Shown here in pieces: positions 8,189 through 21,637 of a stretch of DNA of 64,000 bases. The DNA is taken from contig JACPOZ010000025.1 in NCBI GenBank assembly GCA_016191235.1, positions 3,894 through 67,893 of the forward strand, in the 5' to 3' direction. Position numbers and translations under genes: made by a program. Under the pieces are notes generated by a model. That model had not been told where the DNA came from, made no database searches, and worked only from the letters and a program-made list of their open reading frames with translations. Within the stretch, counting starts at the first letter, position 1; each line of letters starts with the position of its first letter. The stretch is from Gammaproteobacteria bacterium. Lineage in GTDB: Bacteria > Pseudomonadota > Gammaproteobacteria > Ga0077554 > Ga007554.

Positions 8189-9430
8189 ATGACCCAAGAC
8201 ATCAGACAAGCTGCCCTCGACTATCACGAGCACCCCACGCCGGGAAAGCTCGGTATCGCCATTACCAAACCCTGCGACACCCAGCGCGAGCTGGCTCTGG
8301 CCTATACGCCCGGCGTGGCCGAGCCGGTACGCGAGATCGCCAAAGACCCCGAGGCCGCCTACCGCTATACGGCGAAAGGCAACCTGGTGGCGGTGATTAC
8401 CGACGGCACGGCGGTGCTGGGTCTGGGCGATGTCGGGGCGCTGGCGGGCAAACCCGTGATGGAAGGCAAGGCGGTGCTGTTCAAGAAATTCGCCAATATC
8501 GACGTGTTTGATATTGAAGTCACCGCCGGCTCTACACAGGCCTTCATCGACACCGTGGCGCACATCTCGCCAACCTTCGGCGGCATCAATCTGGAAGACA
8601 TCGCCGCACCGCACTGCTTCGAAGTGGAAGAGGCACTCATCGAGCGCCTCGATATTCCGGTATTTCACGACGACCAGCATGGCACCGCCATCATCGTCGC
8701 CGCAGGTCTGCTCAACGCCCTGGAACTGCAAGGCAAGTCCATCGGCGAGGCACGCATCGTATGTCTGGGCGCGGGCGCCGCAGGTATCGCCTCGATGCGC
8801 CTGCTGGTGGCGCTGGGCGCGAAAAAGCACAATATCTTCCTCACTGACCGCCAGGGTGTGATACACAGCGGCCGCACCGACCTCAACACCTACAAGCGCG
8901 AGTTCGCCATCGACACCGGCAGGCGCACCCTGGCCGACGCCATGCAGGATGCGGATGTGCTGATCGGCGTATCCGGCCCCGATCTGGTGACGCCCGAGAT
9001 GCTGGAAGTCATGGCGCCTCGCCCCATCGTTTTCGCCCTCTCCAATCCCGACCCCGAAATCCGCCCCGCCGTGGCCCACGCAGTGCGCAGCGACCTGATC
9101 ATGGCCACCGGGCGCAGCGACTATCCCAATCAGGTCAACAACGTGCTGGGCTTCCCCTTCATCTTCCGCGGCGCTCTGGACGTGCGCGCCACACGCATCA
9201 ACCAGGCCATGCAGATCGCCGCCGTGCATGCCTTGCAGGCGCTGGCCCACGAACCGGTACCCCGCGATGTGCTGGAGGCCTACAAGCTGGACCACCTGGA
9301 ATTCGGCCCCGATTACATCATCCCAAAACCCTTCGACCTGCGGTTGATCGACCGCGTACCTGCGGCCGTGGCGCGGGCGGCGGTGGAGTCGGGGGTGGCG
9401 CGGCAGGACTATCCTGAATACTATCGGTAG
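8189..9430 (+). CDS. maeB: NAD(P)-dependent malic enzyme, short form without PTA domain
   Basis: 413 aa from [21 protein letters not shown]. Contains ..[10 protein letters not shown].., [35 protein letters not shown]. Confidence 0.9.
9407..9416 (+). repeat. Boundary core GACTATCCTG, copy 1 (inside the last codons of maeB)
   Basis: Homology between maeB copy 1 and the downstream maeB fragment ends exactly after this 10-mer. Confidence 0.7.
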
Positions 9431-9465
9431 CGGTCACGTTAGGGGACTATTCGGGGGCGCGCGCG

Positions 9466-9990
9466 ATGGAATGTTTGCGCCGGCTTGAAGATGACGAGAG
9501 TGGACCAATGAGTGCCGAGAGTTTAACTGACGAAAAAATCGGGGAGCTGCTATCCACGCCGAAACGGGTTACTAACCCTAATAGCAAGTGGCGCGAAAAG
9601 CCGGGGCATAACGAACGAAACTACACCGTTGAAAGCATGGATAGCACCCATCATTTTGTTCTATATGTACGACAAAACCGCAATCTGGATGATGATTTCT
9701 CTTGTGGATTGCGTTGGCTTGCACCGAGCGGCGAAACCATAACGCTGGCACGATATAACGGCAGCAGCCATTCTCATCCCAACCATGTTGAGAAACAAAG
9801 GCTTGGATTTGTATGCCACATCCATAAAGCTACAGAGCGCTACATCCGCGCCGGAAAAAAGATCGAAGGATATGCGGAGGATGCATCACTACGTTATAAC
9901 AGCGTTAAAGGCGCACTGGCTTGTCTTGTTGGCGATTGCGCAATCAAAGGGATTGTGACAGAACCTGACCACCCGGACCTATTCAAATGA
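9466..9990 (+). CDS. Hypothetical protein (accessory module 1, gene A)
   Basis: 174-aa ORF. Its stop overlaps the next start (ATGA at 9987-9990). His-rich patch SHSHPNHVEKQ..CHIHKATE. No family recognised. An alternative start is the Met at 9508. Confidence 0.55.
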   Translation: MECLRRLEDDESGPMSAESLTDEKIGELLSTPKRVTNPNSKWREKPGHNERNYTVESMDSTHHFVLYVRQNRNLDDDFSCGLRWLAPSGETITLARYNGSSHSHPNHVEKQRLGFVCHIHKATERYIRAGKKIEGYAEDASLRYNSVKGALACLVGDCAIKGIVTEPDHPDLFK

Positions 9991-10766
9991 CCATTCCCAC
10001 CGAAGAGCTTAAACAGTTACTTTGTAATGCACTCTGTGCCGAGGTACGTCTTTACGAGAAGGGGGAGAATCTGATTTTTGTTGAAACCCCCTTCTCGTTC
10101 AGTGATGGCGATACCTATTCGATTTACCTCAGACAATTGCCGAGCGGTGGTTTTCGTATTAGCGATTATGGTCATACCATGATGCACCTTAGCTATGAGA
10201 ACGATATAGACAAGTTCCGTGAGGGCACGCGAGGCAAGATTTTTGAACAAATTCTCAACGAAATGGATTTAAGAGAGGAAAATGGCGCCTTTTACACGGA
10301 TACGCCAATGGAAAACATCGGGGCTGCTCTTTTCAGATTCGGTCAGGCGGTAACTAAAATTCATGATCTCACCTTCCTGAACCGATTAAGAACAGAATCT
10401 ACATTTTATGATGATCTCCGGGAATCCCTCCAGCATATCGTGCCGACCGAAAAAGTCACGGAAAATTACGTGTACGAGGCAATGCCCAATGCGCGAGATT
10501 ATCCCATCGATTTCCGTATTGACGGAAAGTATGCCCCGCTGTTTGTTTTCGGTATTCCCGGCAGGGATAAGGCGCGCTTGGCTACGATCATTCTGGAGCA
10601 TCTGTTGCGAGAAAAAGCCGAGTTTGATTGCCTGCTGATCTTCGCTGACCAGAGCGTGATTCCTCGGGGAGATTTGGCCCGATTATCTAATGTTGGCGGG
10701 GAAATGGTGGCATCTCTTGACGCGCAAGATGATTTTCAGCGCAAGGTTCTGAAGCGCGTCGCCTAA
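9987..10766 (+). CDS. Hypothetical protein, resembles DUF1828/DUF1829-type proteins (from memory only)
   Basis: 259-aa ORF translationally coupled to gene A. N-terminal ..LIFVETPFSFSDGDTYSIYL.. resembles DUF1828. This assignment is unverified. Confidence 0.55.
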   Translation: MTIPTEELKQLLCNALCAEVRLYEKGENLIFVETPFSFSDGDTYSIYLRQLPSGGFRISDYGHTMMHLSYENDIDKFREGTRGKIFEQILNEMDLREENGAFYTDTPMENIGAALFRFGQAVTKIHDLTFLNRLRTESTFYDDLRESLQHIVPTEKVTENYVYEAMPNARDYPIDFRIDGKYAPLFVFGIPGRDKARLATIILEHLLREKAEFDCLLIFADQSVIPRGDLARLSNVGGEMVASLDAQDDFQRKVLKRVA

Positions 10767-10830
10767 TCCTGCTATGTCGTGCGCCGCAGTGGAATCGCGG
10801 GGTGGCTCGACGGGATTACCCTGGTTTCTA
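10764..10830 (+). repeat. Degenerate remnant of the maeB 3' end (internal att-like scar)
   Basis: GCAGTGGAATCGCGGGGTGGCTCGACGGGATTACCCTGGTTTCTA aligns to 19262-19306 GCGGTGGAATCGGGGGTGGCGCGGCAGGACTATCCTGGTTTTTA. I estimate about 80-85% identity by eye. Core equivalent is GATTACCCTG at 10814-10823. Confidence 0.65.
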
Positions 10831-10882
10831 TCCGACACGCAGGCTGCCAAAAAACAGCCAGTACATGATTGACAGGACCTCC

Positions 10883-13165
10883 ATGGCAAAACTGACCGAA
10901 CAAGAACAACAGGAGATCATCCGCCATCTGGAAGCGGGTAAACCGCTGCCGGACAAATACCGCTTTCTGCTGTTTGACGACAAGCGCGAAGTCGAGCTGG
11001 TGTGGAACGGCAAAACCGGCGAGGTATGCAATGTGGTGCTGCCGTTTCAGGTGATCGAGCAGGTAGACGAGCCGCGCGCAGAGAAGAATACCTCGTTACA
11101 GTTCGGGCTGTTTGACATGGATGCCCGTGGCCGCCAGCTCAAGGGCTGGACCAATAAACTCATCTGGGGCGACAACAAGCTGATTCTCTCGTCCCTCAAA
11201 AACGGCCCGCTGCGCGAAGAGATCGAAAAACAGGGCGGCATCAAGCTGATCTACATCGACCCGCCCTTTGACGTGGGTGCGGATTTTTCGATGGACATCG
11301 AGATCGGCGGCGACACCTTCACCAAAAGACCCAACGTGCTGGAAGAACTCGCCTACCGCGACACCTGGGGCAAGGGCGCGGATTCCTTCATCGCTATGAT
11401 CTACGAGCGGCTGGTGCTGATGCGGGACTTGCTGGCGGAGGATGGGAGTATTTATGTGCATTGCGATTGGCGGGTGAATAGTCATATTAGACTCGTTGCC
11501 GACGAAGTTTTTGGCTCTTCTTATTTTCGCGGCCATATTGCATGGAAAAGAACGTCGGCACATAGCGACTCTAAATTCTTTCCATATATCCACGATTCAA
11601 TTTTGTTTTATGCGAAATCGGAGCGAACCAGGTTTTCTCGCCAGTACGAACCACTTGATGACAAATATGTGGACTCTAAATATCGGCATAAAAACACGGA
11701 TGGAAGGCTATACAGAAAAGATAACTTGACTGCTACAGGGCTTAGTGGGGGTGGCTATGATTATGAATGGAATGGAGTAAAAAGAACGTGGAGATGTCCA
11801 CCTGAAACAATGGGCAGGCACGAAAAAGAAGGCCGATTGAGTTACACGAAAAATGGTGTCGCAGAATATATAAGATACCTTGATGAGAGTGATGGAAGGA
11901 TTGTTGGTGACTTGTGGACTGATATATCTCCAGTCAATAGCCAAGCATCGGATAGACTAAACTACCCCACCCAAAAACCCGAAGCCCTCATTGAACGCAT
12001 CATCAAAGCATCCAGCAACGAAGGCGACCTGATCGCCGATTTCTTTTGCGGCTCCGGCACCACCGCCGCCGTGGCGGAAAAGCTGGGGCGCAAGTGGATC
12101 ACCAGCGACTTGGGCAAATTCGCCATCCACACCACGCGCAAGCGCCTGATCGGGGTGCAGCGGCACCTGAAGGCCGAAGACAAGCCCTACCGCGCCTTTG
12201 AAATTCTCAACCTGGGCAGGTACGAGCGCCAACATTACATCGGCGTAAACCCCAACCTGCGCGAAGTGGAAAAACAGCAGCAACTGGAGGAGAAGGAAGC
12301 CGCCTTTCTCGACCTCATCCTGCGCGCCTACCGCGCCGAACGGACGACGGGCTTTGCCACTTTCCACGGCAAGAAGGCCGGGCGGCTGGTAACGGTGGGG
12401 CCGGTGAATATGCCCATCACGCGGCTGTTCGTGGAGGAGGTGATTCTGGAGTGCCGCAAAAAGCATATCACCAAGGTGGACATGCTCGGCTTCGAGTTCG
12501 AGATGGGCCTGTTCCCCAATGTGTTGGACGAGGCGAAATCCAAAGGCATCGACATCGCGCCCAAATCCATCCCCGCCGACGTGTTCGACAAACGCGCGGT
12601 GGAAAAGAATCAGGTGGTATTCCATGATGTTTCGTTCATCGAGGTGAAGCCGATTATCAAGAAAAACAGCGTAGCGGTGGAGTTGACGGATTTTTCGGTG
12701 TTCTATTCGCAGGATTCAATTTCCGCAGCCGAAGCGTCGCTCAAGGACAAGGCCAGCAAGATCGTGGTAGACAAAGGCCAGATCGTGAAGGTAAGCAAGG
12801 ACAAGGACGGCATCGTCACCCGCGAGCAACTCACCAAACACTGGACGGACTGGATCGACTACTGGTCGGTGGATTTCGACTTCGAAAACAAACGCGAGAT
12901 AATCCGCGTCAAGAAAATCCCCTCTGGGCAAGGCGTGCTGGAAGGACTTGAGCCGCCACAAATTCAATTCGATGAGTACGAGGAAGTCTGGAGCGGGGAT
13001 TACGTTTTCGAAAATGAATGGCAATCCTTCCGCACCAAAAAAGACCGCTCGCTGGAGCTGATAAGCGTGGCGCAGGAAGTGATGCCGGGGCGGCGCAAGA
13101 TCGCGGTGAAGGTGGTGGATATTTTCGGCAACGACACGATGACGATTGTGGAGGTGCGGGTGTGA
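10883..13165 (+). CDS. mod: Type III-like DNA methyltransferase (Mod), beta-class amino-MTase with long C-terminal extension
   Basis: NKLIWGDNKLILSSL. Motif IV IYIDPPFDV precedes NYPTQKPEALIERII and motif I DFFCGSGTTAAVA. Start is uncertain (10802 GTG, 10865 or 10883 ATG). Confidence 0.85.
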   Translation: MAKLTEQEQQEIIRHLEAGKPLPDKYRFLLFDDKREVELVWNGKTGEVCNVVLPFQVIEQVDEPRAEKNTSLQFGLFDMDARGRQLKGWTNKLIWGDNKLILSSLKNGPLREEIEKQGGIKLIYIDPPFDVGADFSMDIEIGGDTFTKRPNVLEELAYRDTWGKGADSFIAMIYERLVLMRDLLAEDGSIYVHCDWRVNSHIRLVADEVFGSSYFRGHIAWKRTSAHSDSKFFPYIHDSILFYAKSERTRFSRQYEPLDDKYVDSKYRHKNTDGRLYRKDNLTATGLSGGGYDYEWNGVKRTWRCPPETMGRHEKEGRLSYTKNGVAEYIRYLDESDGRIVGDLWTDISPVNSQASDRLNYPTQKPEALIERIIKASSNEGDLIADFFCGSGTTAAVAEKLGRKWITSDLGKFAIHTTRKRLIGVQRHLKAEDKPYRAFEILNLGRYERQHYIGVNPNLREVEKQQQLEEKEAAFLDLILRAYRAERTTGFATFHGKKAGRLVTVGPVNMPITRLFVEEVILECRKKHITKVDMLGFEFEMGLFPNVLDEAKSKGIDIAPKSIPADVFDKRAVEKNQVVFHDVSFIEVKPIIKKNSVAVELTDFSVFYSQDSISAAEASLKDKASKIVVDKGQIVKVSKDKDGIVTREQLTKHWTDWIDYWSVDFDFENKREIIRVKKIPSGQGVLEGLEPPQIQFDEYEEVWSGDYVFENEWQSFRTKKDRSLELISVAQEVMPGRRKIAVKVVDIFGNDTMTIVEVRV

Positions 13166-13518
13166 GAAAGGATTTGGCGATTTCCGTGTTTGAAGTCACC
13201 AGTAATCCGCTGTGCGTCGCTTCTTTCGATGGCCAGAGAATCTATGATCGTTTGGTCGTGGCCTTGCAAGCAGGTCGAAGCGTTACGCTGTCCTTCCGCA
13301 ATGTCACCACCTTAACCACGACATTTTTGGATACGGCAATTGGTCAGTTGTACAGCGTGTTCAGTGAAGAAAAAATACGCTCATCGCTCAAAGTACAAGA
13401 TATGCTGGCCGATGATTTGACTTTATTAAAACGAGTGATAGAAACCGCTAAGCAATACTTTAAGATAATGCGCAGAGACAATTCTGCGGCTTGGGAAAAA
13501 GAGGGGACGGAGGAATGA
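13162..13518 (+). CDS. STAS-like (DUF4325-like) small protein
   Basis: GTG 13162 overlaps the mod stop (GTGA), with GAGGTG 5-11 nt upstream. Sequence ..FDGQRIYDRLVVALQAGRSVTLSFRNVTTLTTTFLDTAIGQLY.. resembles DUF4325 (from memory, unverified). Confidence 0.6.
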   Translation: MRKDLAISVFEVTSNPLCVASFDGQRIYDRLVVALQAGRSVTLSFRNVTTLTTTFLDTAIGQLYSVFSEEKIRSSLKVQDMLADDLTLLKRVIETAKQYFKIMRRDNSAAWEKEGTEE

Positions 13519-14900
13519 AAATACAAATTAAAAATCTTGGTGCATTGCAACAAGCCGAGTTCTCTCTTGGTGATATGACCATTTTATGTGGCGGCAATAA
13601 TACAGGTAAGACCTATGCCACTTATGCGCTGTTTGGTTTTTTGTCTGTCTGGCGTGAGAACTTCTCCATTCAGATACCGGAGCAAAAGATTAATCAGCTT
13701 CTTGCAGAAGGTGTTGTTCATATGGATGTGGCTGAATACAGCGATAAGGCTTCGGATATTCTCGCCTCTGGATGTGCTGCGTACACGAAGCAGTTGCCAG
13801 TAATTTTTGCTGCGCCTGCGGATCGGTTTAAGGAGAGCCAGTTTGTCGTGACTGTTGATGCCCAGGACATTCCCTCTTCTGGGGGATATGGGCGTCGCAT
13901 GGGGGCGGCTAATACCGAGCTGTTCTCCATCACCAAAGCGGAGGCCAGCAGTGATCTGGTGATCACTTTGCTGGTTGATAGAGAGCAGGTCAGAATACCA
14001 CTGGATGTCATTACAAGAGTTATTAGTGATTCGCTGAAGGACATTCTTTTCGGCCACCTCTTTCCCAATCCTTTCATCGCCAGCGCAGAAAGAACCGGTG
14101 CGGCTATTTTTCGCAAAGATTTGAATTTCGCTCGCAATCGTTTGCTAGAGGAAATGACTAAAACGGACAAGAATGTCGACCCCATGGACTTGCTATTTAA
14201 GGTCTATCAAGACTATGCCCTACCCGTAAAAGCTAATGTAGATTTTACTCGGCAGCTTGAAACTCTAGCTAAGAAGAGCAGCTTTATTGCCCAGCAACAT
14301 CCAGAGGTATTAGCTGATTTTGCTGACATCATCGGCGGTGAGTACAAAGTGACAACAAATGATGAGCTTTATTACATTCCGAAAGGTAAAAGCGTCAAAC
14401 TGACCATGGACGAAAGCTCTAGCGCGGTGCGTTCACTGTTGGATATTGGCTTCTACCTGAAGCACATGGCCAAGCCGGGTGACTTGCTTATGGTGGACGA
14501 ACCGGAGTTGAACCTTCACCCTGAAAACCAGCGGCGGGTCGCCCGGCTGTTAGCCCGCCTGGTTAATCTCGGCATTAAGGTTTTTATCACGACTCATAGT
14601 GATTACATCGTCAAAGAGTTAAATACGCTCATTATGCTCAGTCACGACAAGCCGCCGTTGAGAAGGCTTGCCGAGAGAGAGGGGTATAAACCTGAAGAGC
14701 TTATAACTTCTGAACGAGTGAGGGTTTACATTGCCGAAAAAGCATCTATCAAAGTGGATGGCGGAAGAAATAAAGTCAATCGACACACGCTGACACCCGC
14801 CGACATAGACCCTGAACTGGGCATTGAGGCTCGCAGTTTCGATACGACAATTGAAACAATGAACCGGATTCAGGAAGAAATTGTCTGGGGCGGGGAATGA
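13515..14900 (+). CDS. ABC/SMC-type ATPase (AAA_15/AAA_21-like)
   Basis: ATG overlaps the upstream stop (ATGA) and GGAGGA lies immediately upstream. Walker A GGNNTGKT, signature-like SSSAVRSLL, Walker B LLMVDEPELNLHP, H-loop ITTHSD. Confidence 0.85.
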   Translation: MKIQIKNLGALQQAEFSLGDMTILCGGNNTGKTYATYALFGFLSVWRENFSIQIPEQKINQLLAEGVVHMDVAEYSDKASDILASGCAAYTKQLPVIFAAPADRFKESQFVVTVDAQDIPSSGGYGRRMGAANTELFSITKAEASSDLVITLLVDREQVRIPLDVITRVISDSLKDILFGHLFPNPFIASAERTGAAIFRKDLNFARNRLLEEMTKTDKNVDPMDLLFKVYQDYALPVKANVDFTRQLETLAKKSSFIAQQHPEVLADFADIIGGEYKVTTNDELYYIPKGKSVKLTMDESSSAVRSLLDIGFYLKHMAKPGDLLMVDEPELNLHPENQRRVARLLARLVNLGIKVFITTHSDYIVKELNTLIMLSHDKPPLRRLAEREGYKPEELITSERVRVYIAEKASIKVDGGRNKVNRHTLTPADIDPELGIEARSFDTTIETMNRIQEEIVWGGE

Positions 14901-15457
14901 CCATGCCTGATCTCGCCATTCTTCACCAGATGATTAAAGATGGAGCCAAGGTGCCATTGCTCGAAAAACACGGCAAAAAATCAGTCGTGCTCTCTGAACC
15001 CCAGCATCCTGACTCCTCGGTAACGATTGCGGGCATGCCGGATAACACTATCGTTATCAAGGCGGATGCTTTCAAGTCTCCCGACACGGTGTTTGCTGGC
15101 TTGCAGGGTGAATGCAAGCGCGCTGATTTTGTCATTGTGGCTGACACTGGCAAAAAGAAAAGCATCGTCTGCATCGAGATGAAGGCAAAAAAAGCTTCTG
15201 AGAAGGAAATCATTCAGCAACTCTCTGGAGCGGAATGTTTTATCGTTTATTGCCGAGAGATTGGTAAGTCCTTTTGGAAGCAGCAGGATTTTCTCGCTGA
15301 TTACTCGTTTCGTTTCATCAGTATTGGTCATACCAGCATTCCCAAGCGCCGGACGCGCATTGATCGGTCTGCAGACGTTCATGATCGTCCTGATCGGATG
15401 TTGAAGATTTCCTCTCCACATCGTTTGCAATTCAATCAGCTGGCCGGAGCAAGCTGA
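14897..15457 (+). CDS. Small hypothetical protein with candidate PD-(D/E)xK nuclease motif
   Basis: 186 aa, with both ends overlapping its neighbours (ATGA at the start, TGATG at the end). Motif ..RADFVIVADTGKKKSIVCIEMKAKK.. fits D..(D)..ExK spacing. Confidence 0.5.
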   Translation: MTMPDLAILHQMIKDGAKVPLLEKHGKKSVVLSEPQHPDSSVTIAGMPDNTIVIKADAFKSPDTVFAGLQGECKRADFVIVADTGKKKSIVCIEMKAKKASEKEIIQQLSGAECFIVYCREIGKSFWKQQDFLADYSFRFISIGHTSIPKRRTRIDRSADVHDRPDRMLKISSPHRLQFNQLAGAS

Positions 15458-18144
15458 TGGCTCTGCACAAGGATTTTCCCTCATCCCCCCATGCCATCCT
15501 CGATCCCTCCATCCGCTGGTTTCCGGCGGATGAGGCCTTGCGCACATCGAGCTTTGAGAAGCTACTGCCGCCGCTGGTGCCGGAACTGCGCAAACAGGTG
15601 AAGACGTGGCGCGATAGCGGCTACGCCAAGGCGACGGAGACTAGCCGCAGCCTGCTCAACTGGTGGTTTAATACGCCACACCTGCTGCCCAAGCTTAATG
15701 GCGGAATGGTTGAGTTTCAGTATTACTTCGCCCAGCGCGAGGCGCTGGAGACCATCATCTACCTGTATGACGTGGTCGGGGTAAAAGATAAATATGACCT
15801 GATGCGCTTCGACCATTCCGGTGCGGTATCCACCGGCATGTTCGACGAAAGCTGGCGGCGCTTTGTGGTAAAGATGGCCACCGGCGCGGGCAAGACCAAG
15901 GTGATGAGTCTGGCGCTGGCGTGGAGCTACTTTCACAAGCTCTATGAGCCGGAGTCGGAGCTGGCGCGCAACTTTCTGGTGATTACGCCCAACATCATCG
16001 TGCTGGATCGTATTTACAAGGATTTTCAGGGGTTGCGTATCTTTTTTGATGACCCGGTGCTGCCGGATAATGGCGTGGATGGGCGCAACTGGCGGGATGA
16101 TTTCCAGCTGGCGTTGCATGTACAGGATGAGGTGAGAATTACTCATCCTGTCGGCAACATCTTTCTGACCAACATCCATCGGGTCTATTCAGGCGAAGAC
16201 ATTCCGCCTTCGCCCGATGATGACAACACTATGGATTATTTTCTCGGAAAACGGCCCACCGGTGCGACGACCGATTCCAAGGTGGATCTGGGCATGATCG
16301 TACGTGACATCGACGAGCTGATGGTGTTGAACGACGAGGCTCACCATATTCACGATAGTAAGCTGGCGTGGTTTAAGTCTATAGAAGATATTCACAACCG
16401 CCTCAAGCAGAAAGGCGATGCTTTGAGTTTACAGCTGGATGTAACAGCGACCCCCAAGCACAACAACGGCGCAATTTTTGTTCAGACCATTGCCGACTAC
16501 CCGTTGGTGGAAGCGATTTCGCAGAACGTGGTGAAGCACCCAGTGTTGCCCGATGCCGCCAGCCGCGCCAAGCTGGCGGAACGGCAAAGCGCCAAATACA
16601 CCGAGAAATACGCCGATTACATCAACCTCGGCGTGGTGGAGTGGCGCAAGGCGTATGCCGAACATGAGAGGCTGGGCAAGAAGGGCATCCTGTTTGTGAT
16701 GACCGACGACACCCGAAATTGTGATGATGTGGTGGATTATCTCGAAGGTAACTATCCCGATCTGAAAGGCGCCGTGCTGGTGATTCATACCAAGAATAAC
16801 GGTGAGATTTCCGAGGCATCCTCAGGCAAGAATAAAGAAGAGCTGGAGCGGCTGCGCAAACAGGCCAATGAGATCGACAGCATGGAGAGCCCCTATAAGG
16901 CCATCGTTTCCGTGTTGATGTTGAAAGAGGGCTGGGATGTGCGCAATGTCACCACCATCGTCGGGCTGCGTGCCTATTCGGCAAAGAGCAATATCCTGCC
17001 CGAGCAGACACTGGGGCGCGGCTTGCGCAAGATGTACCCCGGCGATGTGGAGGAGTATGTCAGCGTGGTGGGTACCGACGCCTTCATGGAGTTTGTCGAG
17101 TCCATTCAAGCTGAAGGTGTGGTGCTGGAACGCAAACCGATGGGTGAGGGAACCGGGCCAAAAACACCACTGATCGTTGAGATCGACAGGGACAACGAGA
17201 AGAAAGATCTTGATGCGCTGGACATAGAAATTCCGGTGATGACACCGCGCGTCTACCGGGAATACAGGAATCTGTCCGATCTTGAGGTGCGCACTCTGGA
17301 TGGTTCCAGGGTGACTTATCAGCAGTTCAGCGAAGAGCAGCAGCGGGAGATTGTCTTTAAGGACATTACCACCGGCGAGGTCACGCATAGCACTTTTCTG
17401 GATACGGCGGGCATTGCCGATTATCGCAGTGTGATCGGTTATTTTACACAGGCCATCATGAAAGATCTGCGTCTGATCAGTGGTTACGATGTGCTTTACG
17501 GCAAGGTCAAGGCATTTGTGCAGGAGCAGTTGTTCGACCAGCAGGTGGTGCTGGATGATCCCAACACCTTGCGGAATCTTTCAGAGCTGGCTGCCACCAA
17601 GACGCTGATCGAAGCATTCAAGAAAGGCATCAACGCACTTACCGTGCGGGATAAGGGCGATGCCGAGATTCGGGACTACATCAAACTGCGGCAAACCAGA
17701 CCATTTGTGGCGAAGGATCAGGGCTACCTGATCCCGAAGAAAAGCATCTTCAACAAGATCATTGGTGATAGCCATTTTGAGTTGCGATTTGCCCGCTTTC
17801 TGGATGATTGCGACGATGTTGTCTCCTACGCCAAAAACTATCTGGCGGTGCATTTCAAGCTCGATTATGTGAACGCCGATGGTAATATTTCAAATTACTA
17901 CCCAGACTTTCTGGTGAAACTGTCGAACAAGGAAATCGTTGTTGTTGAGACCAAAGGCCAGGAGGATCTAGATGTGCCGCTGAAAATGGCGCGGTTGCGA
18001 CAGTGGTGTGAGGACATCAGCCGGATTCAGTTGGAAGTAAAGTACGATTTTGTGTATGTGGATGAAGAGAGTTTTGAGCAATACAGGCCCACGTTATTCA
18101 GGCAGTTGATTGGCAGCTTCCAGGAGTACCAACAGAAAACGTGA
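15457..18144 (+). CDS. res: Type III restriction enzyme Res subunit (SF2 helicase plus C-terminal endonuclease)
   Basis: Walker A MATGAGKTKV, motif II LNDEAHH, later helicase motifs (MLKEGWDV, QTLGRGLR). C-terminal PD..ExK YYPDFLV..VVVETKG. Confidence 0.9.
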   Translation: MALHKDFPSSPHAILDPSIRWFPADEALRTSSFEKLLPPLVPELRKQVKTWRDSGYAKATETSRSLLNWWFNTPHLLPKLNGGMVEFQYYFAQREALETIIYLYDVVGVKDKYDLMRFDHSGAVSTGMFDESWRRFVVKMATGAGKTKVMSLALAWSYFHKLYEPESELARNFLVITPNIIVLDRIYKDFQGLRIFFDDPVLPDNGVDGRNWRDDFQLALHVQDEVRITHPVGNIFLTNIHRVYSGEDIPPSPDDDNTMDYFLGKRPTGATTDSKVDLGMIVRDIDELMVLNDEAHHIHDSKLAWFKSIEDIHNRLKQKGDALSLQLDVTATPKHNNGAIFVQTIADYPLVEAISQNVVKHPVLPDAASRAKLAERQSAKYTEKYADYINLGVVEWRKAYAEHERLGKKGILFVMTDDTRNCDDVVDYLEGNYPDLKGAVLVIHTKNNGEISEASSGKNKEELERLRKQANEIDSMESPYKAIVSVLMLKEGWDVRNVTTIVGLRAYSAKSNILPEQTLGRGLRKMYPGDVEEYVSVVGTDAFMEFVESIQAEGVVLERKPMGEGTGPKTPLIVEIDRDNEKKDLDALDIEIPVMTPRVYREYRNLSDLEVRTLDGSRVTYQQFSEEQQREIVFKDITTGEVTHSTFLDTAGIADYRSVIGYFTQAIMKDLRLISGYDVLYGKVKAFVQEQLFDQQVVLDDPNTLRNLSELAATKTLIEAFKKGINALTVRDKGDAEIRDYIKLRQTRPFVAKDQGYLIPKKSIFNKIIGDSHFELRFARFLDDCDDVVSYAKNYLAVHFKLDYVNADGNISNYYPDFLVKLSNKEIVVVETKGQEDLDVPLKMARLRQWCEDISRIQLEVKYDFVYVDEESFEQYRPTLFRQLIGSFQEYQQKT

Positions 18145-18172
18145 CACGGCACAAATCACCGTTTTGCGAGAA

Positions 18173-18182
18173 GACTATCCTG
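18173..18182 (+). repeat. Boundary core GACTATCCTG, copy at the right end of the mod-res module
   Basis: Exact 10-mer 29 nt after the res stop. The following ..CGCTTAT.. matches the sequence after the 20923 core. Confidence 0.6.
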
Positions 18183-18212
18183 TCAATTGCCTCGCTTATG
18201 AGGCCCCGATAG

Positions 18213-18536
18213 TTACTTCGGCAAACCACCACCCTCTCCGCCAATAGCAATCATCCCGGACAACTCCGATGTTTGCGCCTTCAGAAACGCTAACAATCGA
18301 GCCGGGTAGCCAGGGAAAGCCGCGTCTTTAACAGACGGCCGGGCAGCAAGCGCGGAACGCCATGCCCGCACTTTTGGGGTGCAATCATATACGCCGAAGT
18401 AGCGGAAAATCGGGCCGAATACCGCGTCGACCATCGAGAAGCGCTCACCGGCAAAGTAAGGCCCCACCTTGAGTTGCTGCTCGATAGTTTCGAACTTCGC
18501 CTGGAGGTCAGCGTGTTTGATCTCGTGCGCCTTGGC
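18213..18536 (-). pseudogene. 3' fragment of a glutathione S-transferase gene (divergent second allele)
   Basis: Translates to ..[73 protein letters not shown].., matching the C-terminal third of the GST at 20942-21637. It has an in-frame roughly 9-aa gap. It has no 5' part and abuts the maeB fragment. Confidence 0.8.
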
Positions 18537-19307
18537 ATACCGGTGTTCCACGACGACCAGCATGGCACCGCCATCATCGTCGCCGCAGGTCTGCTCAACG
18601 CCCTGGAACTGCAAGGCAAGTCCATCGGCGAGGCGCGCATCGTATGCCTGGGCGCGGGCGCTGCGGGTATCGCCTCGATGCGCCTGCTGGTGGCGCTGGG
18701 CGCGAAAAAGCACAATATCTTCCTCACTGACCGCCAGGATGTGATACACAGCGGCCGCACCGACCTCAACACCTACAAGCGCGAGTTCGCCATCGACACC
18801 GGCAGGCGCACCCTGGCCGACGCCATGCAGGATGCGGATGTGCTGATCGGCGTATCCGGCCCCGATCTGGTAACGCCCGAGATGCTGGAAGTCATGGCGC
18901 CCCGCCCCATCGTTTTCGCCCTGTCCAATCCCGACCCCGAAATCCGCCCCGCCGTGGCTCACGCGGTGCGTAGCGACCTGATCATGGCCACCGGGCGGAG
19001 CGATTACCCTAACCAGGTCAACAACGTGCTGGGTTTCCCGTTCATCTTCCGCGGCGCCCTGGACGTGCGCGCCACACGCATCAACCAGGCCATGCAGATC
19101 GCCGCCGTGCATGCCTTGCAGGCGCTGGCCCACGAACCGGTGCCCCGCGATGTGCTGGAGGCCTACAAGCTAGACCACCTGGAATTCGGCCCCGATTACA
19201 TCATCCCAAAACCCTTCGACCTGCGTCTGATCGACCGCGTACCAGCCGCTGTGGCGCGGGCTGCGGTGGAATCGGGGGTGGCGCGGCAGGACTATCCTGG
19301 TTTTTAG
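18537..19307 (+). pseudogene. 3' fragment of the malic-enzyme gene (second allele, promoterless and 5'-truncated)
   Basis: Collinear with 8655-9416. By eye I count about 30 substitutions over about 760 bp, and all but one (G to D) are synonymous. It ends ..QDYPGF* where copy 1 ends ..QDYPEYYR*. Confidence 0.85.
19290..19299 (+). repeat. Boundary core GACTATCCTG, copy at the left end of the Fic module
   Basis: Exact 10-mer at the end of the maeB fragment. Confidence 0.6.
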
Positions 19308-19448: not shown

Positions 19449-20798
19449 TTAGAGCTTATTTTCTATTAGCCTAGCCTTTAGATCTGGTGGGGAGACAAAT
19501 ACGAAGGAAGCTCCATATTTCCTCCTCCTCAACAAATTTAATTGATCAGACATTTTCAACAAATCTGTTCTAGCGGTTTGATAACTAACTGCATGCGAAG
19601 CCTGATGCTCTTGTATGCGATAAATAGCATTTGGATGCTCCAGGGCATGCTTCAATAATGACAATTGCCTATGATTCAACTGGCCCTTGGCCTTCGAGTT
19701 ATCAAGCAACTTCTCAGCTTCTTCAATTTCTTGTGATTTTATTTCTAGATATTCATGTAATGCTTTAACCCCCTTCTTAATTATGTCCATTTGATGAATA
19801 AGAAAATAGGTTAAGTCATTACCATCAGTTTCAGTATGTAAATAGGCTTTGCCATATTGGACAGGGTTCTGTTTAATGATTCTGGAGATAGAAATAAATT
19901 CCATCAGCCAGTAGCCTTGCTTTGCCATTGCCCAGTAAAACAATGCCCTGGCCGTTCTCCCATTGCCGTCAACAAAAGGGTGATCGTAGCCGATCATAAA
20001 ATGCAAGGTTATTGCCTTTATAACTGGATGAATAAACTCTTTTTCTTCCAAGTCGTTAGCAAATCTGCATATTTTTTCAATACGCCCAGGAAGAGTATCC
20101 GCATCTGGTGGTGCATGAAGAACAACTGATTCACTACTGTCCACGACCTGGATATCATCCGTATTTTCTCTAAAATGTCCGGCCTTGGAAGGATCATCAA
20201 GAGTATTTTTGGTGAGAATTTCATGGAGGTGCTTAATTAGGGATGGCGTTAGTTCGTCGTCCTTATAATCTCTTATAGCCCTCATAGCCTTATAATTGTT
20301 AAAAATCATCTGCTCACTATGATCTTTAGGCTGCCGCCCTTGCCTTAGCATCTCCTTGGCAACATTTCTTGTCGTTGACGCCCCCTCAAGCTGGCTAGAG
20401 CTTATAGATTCCTCAATAAGGGAGCTGACGAGGTAAGTGTCTCTAGTATGAGGATTCGTGATAGGCCGATCCATCGTAATACTTCCAGCTGCATTCTGAT
20501 CCAGCCAATGCAACTCTCTTTGCAAAGGGTCTGGGACACAAAAATTAAAGGGACTCCCATTTTTATCTGTGAGGGATAATTTTTTAAATGCCTTTTGCCG
20601 TGCCAGCTTGGTAGCAAACCAGTATTCTTCGCTGGACAATCCTTCAGGAGGCGAAAGATGTTTTAGTTTTTCCCAATGAAGATATCTGCCTTTGCCGTCT
20701 GTAAGTCCAATATTAGAAGTCAGAATTTGCGCCAGCTTTTTCTGATCAAGCTTCACGAGCATTTCAGAAATAGATGGTGGTGATTCAGGTATTTTCAC
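19449..20798 (-). CDS. Fic family protein (class II, with N-terminal inhibitory motif and C-terminal wHTH-like tail)
   Basis: Canonical Fic motif HPFVDGNGRTARAL. SxxxEG inhibitory-helix motif (SSSQLEGAST) upstream. Very AT-rich compared with the flanks. The ORF-track start is a GTG. Confidence 0.9.
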   Translation of the reverse strand: MKIPESPPSISEMLVKLDQKKLAQILTSNIGLTDGKGRYLHWEKLKHLSPPEGLSSEEYWFATKLARQKAFKKLSLTDKNGSPFNFCVPDPLQRELHWLDQNAAGSITMDRPITNPHTRDTYLVSSLIEESISSSQLEGASTTRNVAKEMLRQGRQPKDHSEQMIFNNYKAMRAIRDYKDDELTPSLIKHLHEILTKNTLDDPSKAGHFRENTDDIQVVDSSESVVLHAPPDADTLPGRIEKICRFANDLEEKEFIHPVIKAITLHFMIGYDHPFVDGNGRTARALFYWAMAKQGYWLMEFISISRIIKQNPVQYGKAYLHTETDGNDLTYFLIHQMDIIKKGVKALHEYLEIKSQEIEEAEKLLDNSKAKGQLNHRQLSLLKHALEHPNAIYRIQEHQASHAVSYQTARTDLLKMSDQLNLLRRRKYGASFVFVSPPDLKARLIENKL

Positions 20799-20943: not shown

Positions 20944-21637
20944 ACGTGCGCTTAGGCAGTAGACCATCACTCATAGCAATCATCCTGGACAACCCCGATG
21001 TTTGCACCTTCAGAAACGCTAACAATCGAGCCGGGTAGCCAGGGAAAACCGCGTCTTTAACAGATGGCCGGGCGGCAAGCGCGGAACGCCATGCCCGCAC
21101 TTTGGGGGTGTTATCAAATATGCCGAAATCAGCAATGGCATCGAACACGTCGAAGTAGCGGAAAATCGGGCCGAATACTGCGTCGACCATCGAGAAGCGA
21201 TCACCGGCAAAATAAGGCCCCTCCTTGAGTTGCTGCTCGATGGTTTCAAACTTCGCCTGGAGGTCAGCGCGTTTGATCTGGAGCGCCTTGGCGTCTGGGG
21301 CGGTGTAAAAGCCCCAAATGTTATCGAGAATCGCGGAGCCGAATTCCATCCATGCGCGATGCTTGGCTCGCTGCAACGGGTCGCCGGGATGCAGCGGTTC
21401 GCCCATCGTCTCGTCGAGATACTCGCAGATGACGGCGGACTCGAAGAGCACCTCCGCGCCAATCTGCAATAGCGGCACCTTCCCCAAGGGCGAAATCTTG
21501 TTGAACCACTCAGGCCTGTTTGCGAGGTCGATGTAGGTTCGCTCAAAGGGCGCACCCTTTTCGTTGAGCACGATGACGGCGCGCTGCACATAGGGGCACA
21601 GATGATGACTTACCAAATGCAGTTTTTCATTATTCAT
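20942..21637 (-). CDS. Glutathione S-transferase family protein
   Basis: Start at MNNEKLHLVSHHLCPYVQR.. preceded by AAGGAGG. Thioredoxin-like N-terminus and GST C-terminal domain. The ORF-track 5' extension to 21721 crosses the operator region. Confidence 0.85.
   Translation of the reverse strand: MNNEKLHLVSHHLCPYVQRAVIVLNEKGAPFERTYIDLANRPEWFNKISPLGKVPLLQIGAEVLFESAVICEYLDETMGEPLHPGDPLQRAKHRAWMEFGSAILDNIWGFYTAPDAKALQIKRADLQAKFETIEQQLKEGPYFAGDRFSMVDAVFGPIFRYFDVFDAIADFGIFDNTPKVRAWRSALAARPSVKDAVFPGYPARLLAFLKVQTSGLSRMIAMSDGLLPKRT

Follow-up and report, generated by a model that had tools for sequence, protein, structure and literature searches.

Does the small STAS-like gene that precedes an ABC ATPase gene and a candidate nuclease gene, all three lying between the Mod and Res genes of a type III restriction-modification (R-M) system, act as the switch of that pair? 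The question is raised by a 64,000-nucleotide (nt) stretch of a Gammaproteobacteria bacterium (GenBank assembly GCA_016191235.1, contig JACPOZ010000025.1, positions 3,894 to 67,893), here called the window and used with its own numbering, in which a sequence-only reading had proposed that the STAS-like protein, the ATPase and the nuclease form one switchable triad. From the comparative analysis we hold, with moderate confidence, that the locus is a nested defense operon of the order Mod - orphan VapS - ABC ATPase - nuclease - Res, in which the ATPase-nuclease pair is autonomous and the STAS protein is not its obligatory switch.

Five forward-strand genes (10802-18144) follow one another with stop and start codons overlapping or abutting throughout, in the order Mod, STAS, ATPase, nuclease and Res, and these overlaps make them read as one operon. 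Mod (10802-13165, 787 amino acids, aa) is a type III R-M DNA methyltransferase, matched by Pfam N6_N4_Mtase (2.2e-45) and PADLOC MTase_III (3.7e-109) and carrying DPPF and FxGxG motifs in its translation. Res (15457-18144, 895 aa), whose start overlaps the nuclease stop at 15457, is the helicase-nuclease of the system, with matches to Pfam ResIII (9.7e-15) and PADLOC REase_III (5.5e-21) and a C-terminal endonuclease domain (RE_endonuc, TnsA-like). Mod and Res in a single operon, the combination by which a type III R-M system is recognized, are both present in the window, and profile matches on the two sides agree with the earlier proposal that the module is embedded in such a system. The G+C content of the region (0.47-0.54) is below that of its flanks, and a promoter and terminator scan of 9300-18500 gave no difference from shuffled sequences. 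With 403 homologues of the small nuclease candidate (E <= 1e-3) and 245 of the STAS protein, both are real genes and not chance open reading frames (ORFs).

The ATPase gene (13515-14900, forward strand) encodes an OLD-type ABC ATPase of 461 aa; the listed ORF starts at a TTG codon (13491), and the ATG at 13515 is favored by the homologues and by its ATGA overlap with the stop codon of the STAS gene. Its Walker A motif (GGNNTGKT, aa 26-33, nt 13590-13613), signature (SSSAVRSLL, aa 301-309, nt 14415-14441), Walker B/D-loop (LLMVDEPELNLHP, aa 324-336, nt 14484-14522) and H-loop (ITTHSD, aa 358-363, nt 14586-14603) were all located, as had been quoted for a protein of SMC/ABC type. The long insertion noted earlier between Walker A and the signature is also real, spans about 267 residues and is the typical build of OLD/PD-T4-4-type ABC ATPases. 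Full-length matches were obtained with the PADLOC profiles PDC-M47A (4.2e-237) and PD-T4-4_A (4.2e-160), and Pfam assigned AAA_15 and AAA_21; the AriA, GajA, PtuA and Old profiles match weakly and only over the Walker B/H-loop half.

The gene that follows (14903-15457, forward strand) encodes a small PD-(D/E)xK-type nuclease candidate of 184 aa when read from the second Met, at which its homologues start, or 186 aa from 14897. The sequence-only reading could give it no family; it is catalogued, with a match to PADLOC PDC-M47B (4.5e-82) and a weak one, over the catalytic core only, to PD-T4-4_B (8.2e-6), and there is no Pfam or NCBIfam family for it. Six residues, E70, K72, R73, D75, E92 and K94 (184-aa numbering; GECKRAD ... 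IEMK), are invariant in 35 aligned sequences, and the stretch RADFVIVADTGKKKSIVCIEMK is encoded at nt 15119-15184. In an AlphaFold2 (AF2) model (pLDDT 74, pTM 0.77), D75 lies just before a strand, E92-x-K94 ends the next strand and a long helix comes after, which in this model would be the layout expected of a PD-(D/E)xK core. A Foldseek search of the model against PDB and BFVD returned nothing below E 1e-3, leaving the nuclease fold unconfirmed, and its weak top matches are mostly PD-(D/E)xK nucleases (FokI, N.BspD6I, cap-snatching endonucleases, XisH, VRR-NUC, RecE-like and Mrr-like proteins). Searching PDB sequences with the family profile gave no significant match, and a per-member Pfam scan of the family at E up to 1 found only scattered weak matches (DUF2726, VRR_NUC, HSDR_N_2, Hjc). 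The suspected nuclease character of this protein is consistent with a PD-(D/E)xK-type motif whose D75, E92 and K94 are conserved among homologues and which the predicted structure places on consecutive strands; the structural matches stayed below threshold, and the protein is likely, though not proven, to be a PD-(D/E)xK nuclease.

Homologues of this small protein at 60-90% identity occur in Gallionella, Nitrosomonas, cyanobacteria, Desulfobacterales and others, with metagenome-assembled genomes (MAGs) of Gallionella and Nitrosomonas as the nearest relatives. Such identity across several phyla is unusually high for a defense effector. This high cross-phylum identity points to a recent and frequent horizontal spread of the cassette.

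A survey of the pair, in which one genome per species was scanned and 80 loci were kept (each scan being confined to its best 80 matches), found the small gene immediately preceded by the ATPase gene in about 78 of the 80, among neighbors that vary from locus to locus. In two of them (L038, 5048-16567, and L070) the pair stands between BrxC and PglX of a type 1 BREX system, as confirmed by PADLOC. For L016, L032, L043, L055 and L059, only the sizes of the genes suggest a position within BREX. Together, ATPase and small protein are thus a self-contained two-gene cassette, PADLOC PDC-M47 of the PD-T4-4 family, which travels as a unit and is nested in several multi-gene defense systems; the window's pair is a new member of this catalogued family, and the idea that the ATPase works with a separate nuclease-like partner is borne out by the PDC-M47A/PDC-M47B pairing. 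When a hidden Markov model of the STAS family was run over the 80 pair-bearing genome loci, the STAS gene was found in one only, a Nitrosomonas MAG with the same five-gene order (L002), and was absent from 79. As a three-gene unit, the triad is accordingly not conserved, and the STAS protein has partners of its own, a GHKL kinase and a PIN toxin.

Among known systems, PD-T4-4 is similar in that its operon has two genes, the first for an OLD-type ABC ATPase and the second for a small protein of the PD-(D/E)xK class (Vassallo et al. 2022, PMC9519451). It was recovered by functional selection in E. coli (PMC9519451) and has been classed among the PD-(D/E)xK nuclease-NTPase systems, with higher-order complexes (10.1101/2025.07.10.664194). 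Unlike PD-T4-4, the window's pair has a small protein with a weak PD-T4-4_B match and is nested in Mod-Res behind a VapS-like gene. WonAB, from the Vibrio cholerae WASA-1 prophage, also joins an OLD-type ABC ATPase to a separate small variant PD-(D/E)xK nuclease; it has all six ABC motifs, requires both genes and their catalytic residues, including the ATPase motifs and the nuclease Lys, acts by abortive infection and was grouped with PD-T4-4-like operons (PMC12137116). The likeness to WonAB is one of architecture and of that paper's link to PD-T4-4, not of compared sequences, and WonAB is prophage-borne and not nested in an R-M system.

Gabija, PARIS, Septu and P2 OLD share the principle of an OLD-family ABC ATPase sensor with a nuclease effector, but their effectors are TOPRIM or HNH proteins, fused or separate, whereas the partner here is a separate PD-(D/E)xK-type protein. 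Membership of Gabija, PARIS or Septu was rejected, as the partner has no TOPRIM or HNH match and the AriA, GajA and PtuA matches are partial and far weaker than those to PD-T4-4. ABC ATPase-nuclease pairs inside methylation-based multi-gene systems are known from nested defense systems (Payne et al. 2024, 10.1101/2024.01.29.577857) and from MADS, and no cargo is nested in other defense systems more often than ABC ATPase pairs (10.1101/2024.01.29.577857). In contrast to MADS, the pair is hosted here by a type III R-M system, and neither Mod nor Res matches any MADS model; the window's ATPase reaches only 8e-4 against MAD3 and 6.9e-10 against mad3. The locus was consequently not assigned to MADS (MAD6-8 as core, MAD3/MAD4 as accessory proteins), true MAD3 and MAD4 being found only in sister loci (L165-167).

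The gene between Mod and the ATPase (13162-13518, forward strand, 118 aa) has a GTG start that overlaps the Mod stop (GTGA) and a stop that overlaps the ATPase start (ATGA), and its product matches Pfam DUF4325 (1.8e-16), in keeping with its earlier recognition as STAS-like; NCBIfam has no model for it. A profile built from 32 STAS homologues matched PDB entry 9z7o, 'Escherichia VapS', over the whole length (E 9e-19) and, at the level of sequence, the gene is a VapS homologue. In the HMMER alignment to 9z7o, Thr53 (codon 13318-13320) falls on the VapS phospho-acceptor Ser48; at this position every orphan copy has Thr and the canonical copies have Ser. The C-terminal tail differs from the canonical VapS consensus. 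All 31 of 31 family-invariant residues are present in the orphans, by construction, since five orphan sequences are part of the alignment (A2). For the STAS protein, AF2 gave a poor model (pLDDT 66), and a Foldseek search with it returned no significant structural match, although the VapS entry may post-date the search library.

In the VapKSC model, the GHKL kinase VapK, activated by single-stranded DNA (ssDNA), phosphorylates VapS at S48 and thereby releases the PIN toxin VapC, and the C-terminal region of VapS (94-116) is needed to block VapC (PMC13373217). VapS, a STAS-domain antitoxin of VapC, is a precedent for a STAS protein inhibiting a nuclease (PMC13373217; Chambers et al., EMBO J 2026), and an earlier survey of PIN domains had described a PIN group coupled to DUF4325 genes (PMC5499597). 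The window's protein resembles VapS in length (about 116-121 aa in VapS), in the Ser/Thr at the S48 position and in occupying the same Mod-Res slot. However, VapK, which comprises STAS and a GHKL kinase, is not upstream of it, and the 64-kb window has no HATPase_c homologue; VapC is not downstream, where the ABC ATPase stands, and the window has no PIN homologue; and the C-terminal inhibitory region is diverged and evolves neutrally. Homology to VapK likewise revealed no anti-sigma-type kinase elsewhere in the window. Being a VapS homologue without VapK and VapC in the 64-kb window, the gene is an orphan.

To follow this gene in relatives, metagenome contigs were scanned with the STAS alignment and neighbors were classified by tblastn, which gives a sample biased towards relatives of the window's STAS protein. 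In 73 loci, Pfam assignments gave the order GHKL-ATPase (about 290 aa) - STAS - PIN (about 178 aa). Twenty-two VapKSC loci extend at least 1.5 kb on both sides, and 10 of them are nested between Mod and Res (L081-L083, L096, L106, L107, L109, L124, L137 and L149), the remaining 12 being standalone. Mod and Res around the nested cassettes are 68-74% and 80-86% identical to the window's, respectively, and across related loci a Mod of 68-84% identity flanks either VapKSC or ABC-ATPase cargo. The same Mod-Res slot therefore holds a full VapK-VapS-VapC cassette in relatives, whose ssDNA-sensing kinase could be fed by the products of R-M cleavage. The words 'type III' and 'embedded' are both missing from the text of the VapKSC paper (PMC13373217).

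In a midpoint-rooted neighbor-joining tree, the STAS copies without VapK and VapC fall into one clade. Copies in this clade are followed by PDC-M47 cargo in the window, L002, L138, L085, L086 and L168-170, and by a different ATPase and partner in L087 and L165-167, where the cargo is MAD3 (NCBIfam, 2e-157) and MAD4 (6.5e-65), both above cut-off. Wherever contigs reach both flanks, the order is always Mod-STAS-[ABC ATPase + small effector]-Res, and the orphan STAS gene is intact in 12 copies. The MAD3/MAD4-bearing loci (L087; L165, 9001-11315; L166; L167) are of a Methylococcaceae-type lineage, with an orphan VapS 79% identical to the window's between Mod and Res. On a phage-like contig with NinB, HNH and dUTPase genes (L084, 7458-8651), a C-terminal fragment of VapK stands with a VapS and a 225-aa PIN-like protein (Pfam PIN, 1.4e-3); this VapS is identical to the copy of L082 and L083 (P0167 in all three) and the PIN-like protein differs, so that L084 is a variant carried by a phage or else a chimera produced by assembly. 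As far as the available literature goes, VapKSC within a type III R-M system, the constrained clade of orphan VapS and the recurrence of that clade before two kinds of ABC ATPase-nuclease pair are new.

Is the orphan gene under selection? Over residues 1-100, the ratio of nonsynonymous to synonymous substitution rates (dN/dS, pairwise Nei-Gojobori) is 0.09-0.27 in orphans, against a median of 0.086 in canonical VapS, for a gene that is short and for which dS is saturated in the deeper pairs; in the orphan C-terminal tail, pN is about equal to pS. These values indicate that the STAS core is under purifying selection, and the tail, corresponding to the VapC-blocking region, drifts neutrally. A decaying pseudogene was rejected as an explanation, with core dN/dS well below 1 and intact genes in 12 copies. 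Since the tail is without constraint, the orphan is unlikely to serve as an antidote to VapC.

In two related loci STAS has been lost and the pair is still whole. In a Methylobacter MAG (L005, 8440-8620), Mod is followed by about 25 nt of the STAS 5' end, then by ATPase, nuclease and Res, all four genes being full length; its ATPase comes from a different PDC-M47 lineage, which suggests that the pair was captured here a second time, independently, and that STAS was removed in the process. In a Gallionella MAG (L001, 2860-2965), the ATPase is immediately preceded by about 60 nt of the Mod 3' end, and of Res no more than a C-terminal fragment is left, with the pair intact and its ATPase within the STAS-linked lineage. 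The remnants in both loci are footprints of cargo exchange. ATPases beside STAS do not differ in length from the others (461 aa) and carry no extra domain, and together with the intact pairs of L005 and L001 this speaks for a pair that is viable, and kept, in the absence of STAS.

Against this background, a rewired STAS protein that gates the pair, holding nuclease or ATPase inactive until a signal such as phosphorylation of Thr53 by a kinase encoded elsewhere, appears doubtful to us. What speaks for it is the VapS precedent, in which phosphorylation frees a STAS protein from the nuclease that it binds and inhibits (PMC13373217), together with the constrained orphan core, the Thr53 kept in all orphan copies, the overlap of the STAS stop with the ATPase start, and the position of the orphan before two unrelated ABC ATPase-nuclease pairs, PDC-M47 and MAD3/MAD4. 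Among STAS proteins, moreover, MlaB binds the ABC ATPase MlaF (PMC7367683); the locus has no transporter, and this parallel, like that with RsbV/RsbW and SpoIIAA/SpoIIAB, single-domain STAS proteins with Ser/Thr at the phospho-acceptor position, is one of analogy only. On the other hand, 79 of the 80 genome loci have the pair but no STAS, and the pair is intact without it in L001, of the same ATPase lineage, and in L005; there is no kinase in the locus or the window; the ATPases beside STAS show no added domain; and STAS stays with the Mod-Res chassis while the cargo changes. Furthermore, ABC ATPase pairs are the commonest nested cargo, so that two such cargos behind STAS say little about a shared function. 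Gating of the pair by STAS, as first proposed, is possible but unsupported.

Similarly doubtful is a broader version, in which a VapS-type clade, after losing its kinase and PIN toxin, took on the part of a gate or adaptor that can be moved between OLD-type ABC ATPase-nuclease effectors (PDC-M47, MAD3/MAD4) within type III R-M operons; if true, it would couple restriction-generated DNA damage, or a trans-acting kinase, to a second, abortive layer of defense. Classical STAS partner switching was rejected, as 9466-18144 encodes no kinase or phosphatase; nor is a sigma factor present.

It is also unlikely, in our estimate, that the orphan STAS protein serves the chassis or acts in trans, whether by modulating Mod/Res, as a substrate or decoy of a VapK/CapK-type kinase, or as a residual VapC antidote. 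Such a role would suit a gene that always stands directly after Mod with overlapping codons, persists through cargo swaps, retains its phospho-acceptor and was never seen with the pair outside this R-M system in the 80 genome loci, and CapK/CapS pairs are often found just downstream of R-M systems. Nevertheless, the VapC-neutralizing region is neutral in the orphans, contrary to an anti-VapC role, and canonical VapKSC works without Mod and Res, as in the 12 standalone loci of 22. Least probable is a single integrated, MADS-like methylation-dependent system of all five genes with a pair that depends on Mod/Res: overlapping codons run through the operon, MAD3/MAD4 occupy the same slot in sister loci, deletion of mad3 or mad4 abolishes MADS defense and mad5 can be deleted only together with mad2 or mad3 (10.1101/2023.03.30.534895), but the PDC-M47 pair has many unrelated neighborhoods, BREX among them, it is intact in L001 though Mod and Res have decayed, and PD-T4-4 and WonAB protect as two-gene systems.

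Under the reading that we prefer, a nested operon with an autonomous pair, the Mod-Res gap of this R-M family would be a slot for second-line defense cassettes, and its ancestral occupant in the window's lineage would have been VapKSC. In one lineage VapK would have been precisely deleted, and an ABC ATPase-nuclease cassette would have taken the place of VapC: PDC-M47 in the window, MAD3/MAD4 in the sister loci. By homology and analogy with PD-T4-4 and WonAB, the ATPase dimer would be the sensor of infection, and ATP binding or hydrolysis (Walker A K32, Walker B E329, H361) may license or stabilize the PD-(D/E)xK nuclease (D75, E92, K94), which would then degrade nucleic acid and halt phage growth, backing up the type III R-M system as its second layer. 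The orphan VapS, with its constrained STAS core and its Thr phospho-acceptor kept, is probably still functional, and probably a dispensable accessory carried by the R-M chassis rather than an obligatory switch of the pair.

Several points weigh against this reading. PDC-M47 is a candidate system, phage protection having been tested for PD-T4-4 and WonAB only, and the nuclease fold lacks a significant match in the structural and PDB-sequence searches given above. Besides the restriction to best matches, most of the surveyed loci come from metagenome assemblies; the neighbor-joining trees carry no support values; and the selection estimates have the limits stated with them. Nor does a 'leftover' explain why a constrained orphan STAS gene was retained, and a functional link could underlie the fact that the two cargos following it are both OLD-type ABC ATPase-nuclease pairs. 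Finally, nested pairs are not always autonomous: in MADS, MAD3/MAD4 are needed for defense by the whole methylation system (10.1101/2023.03.30.534895).

Around the operon, further candidate defense genes were observed. Directly upstream of Mod (9466-10766, forward strand), genes for a DUF6978 protein (174 aa) and a DUF1828 protein (259 aa) have overlapping codons and match the PADLOC candidate PDC-M24 (B, 4.2e-15; A weakly, 1.7e-3); this gene pair was not found beside the same R-M system in any related locus and is probably a separate neighboring candidate system. The 3' part of a malic-enzyme gene is duplicated (8640-8939 and 18523-18822, 96% identical), as is that of a GST gene (18244-18536 and 20973-21292, 92-93%), giving the order maeB-3', R-M island, GST-3' copy, maeB-3' copy, Fic gene, GST, which looks like a duplicated integration spot that holds two islands; a chimeric ORF (18213-19133, reverse strand) runs across the junction. 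The Fic-domain protein (19449-20798, reverse strand, 449 aa; Pfam Fic 3.5e-20, PADLOC SoFic 6.8e-40) is encoded in the stretch of lowest G+C content in the region (0.42-0.49) and is possibly another defense or toxin gene, of the second island.

In brief, the Mod-Res gap of one type III R-M family has been filled in turn by VapKSC, PDC-M47 and MAD3/MAD4, and such swapping of cargo can strand a regulator, here VapS. For annotation, the locus is a warning that three adjacent genes are not necessarily one system, each of them having conserved partners elsewhere. The stranded and constrained VapS is, moreover, a direct test case for the re-use of a STAS antitoxin with a new effector.

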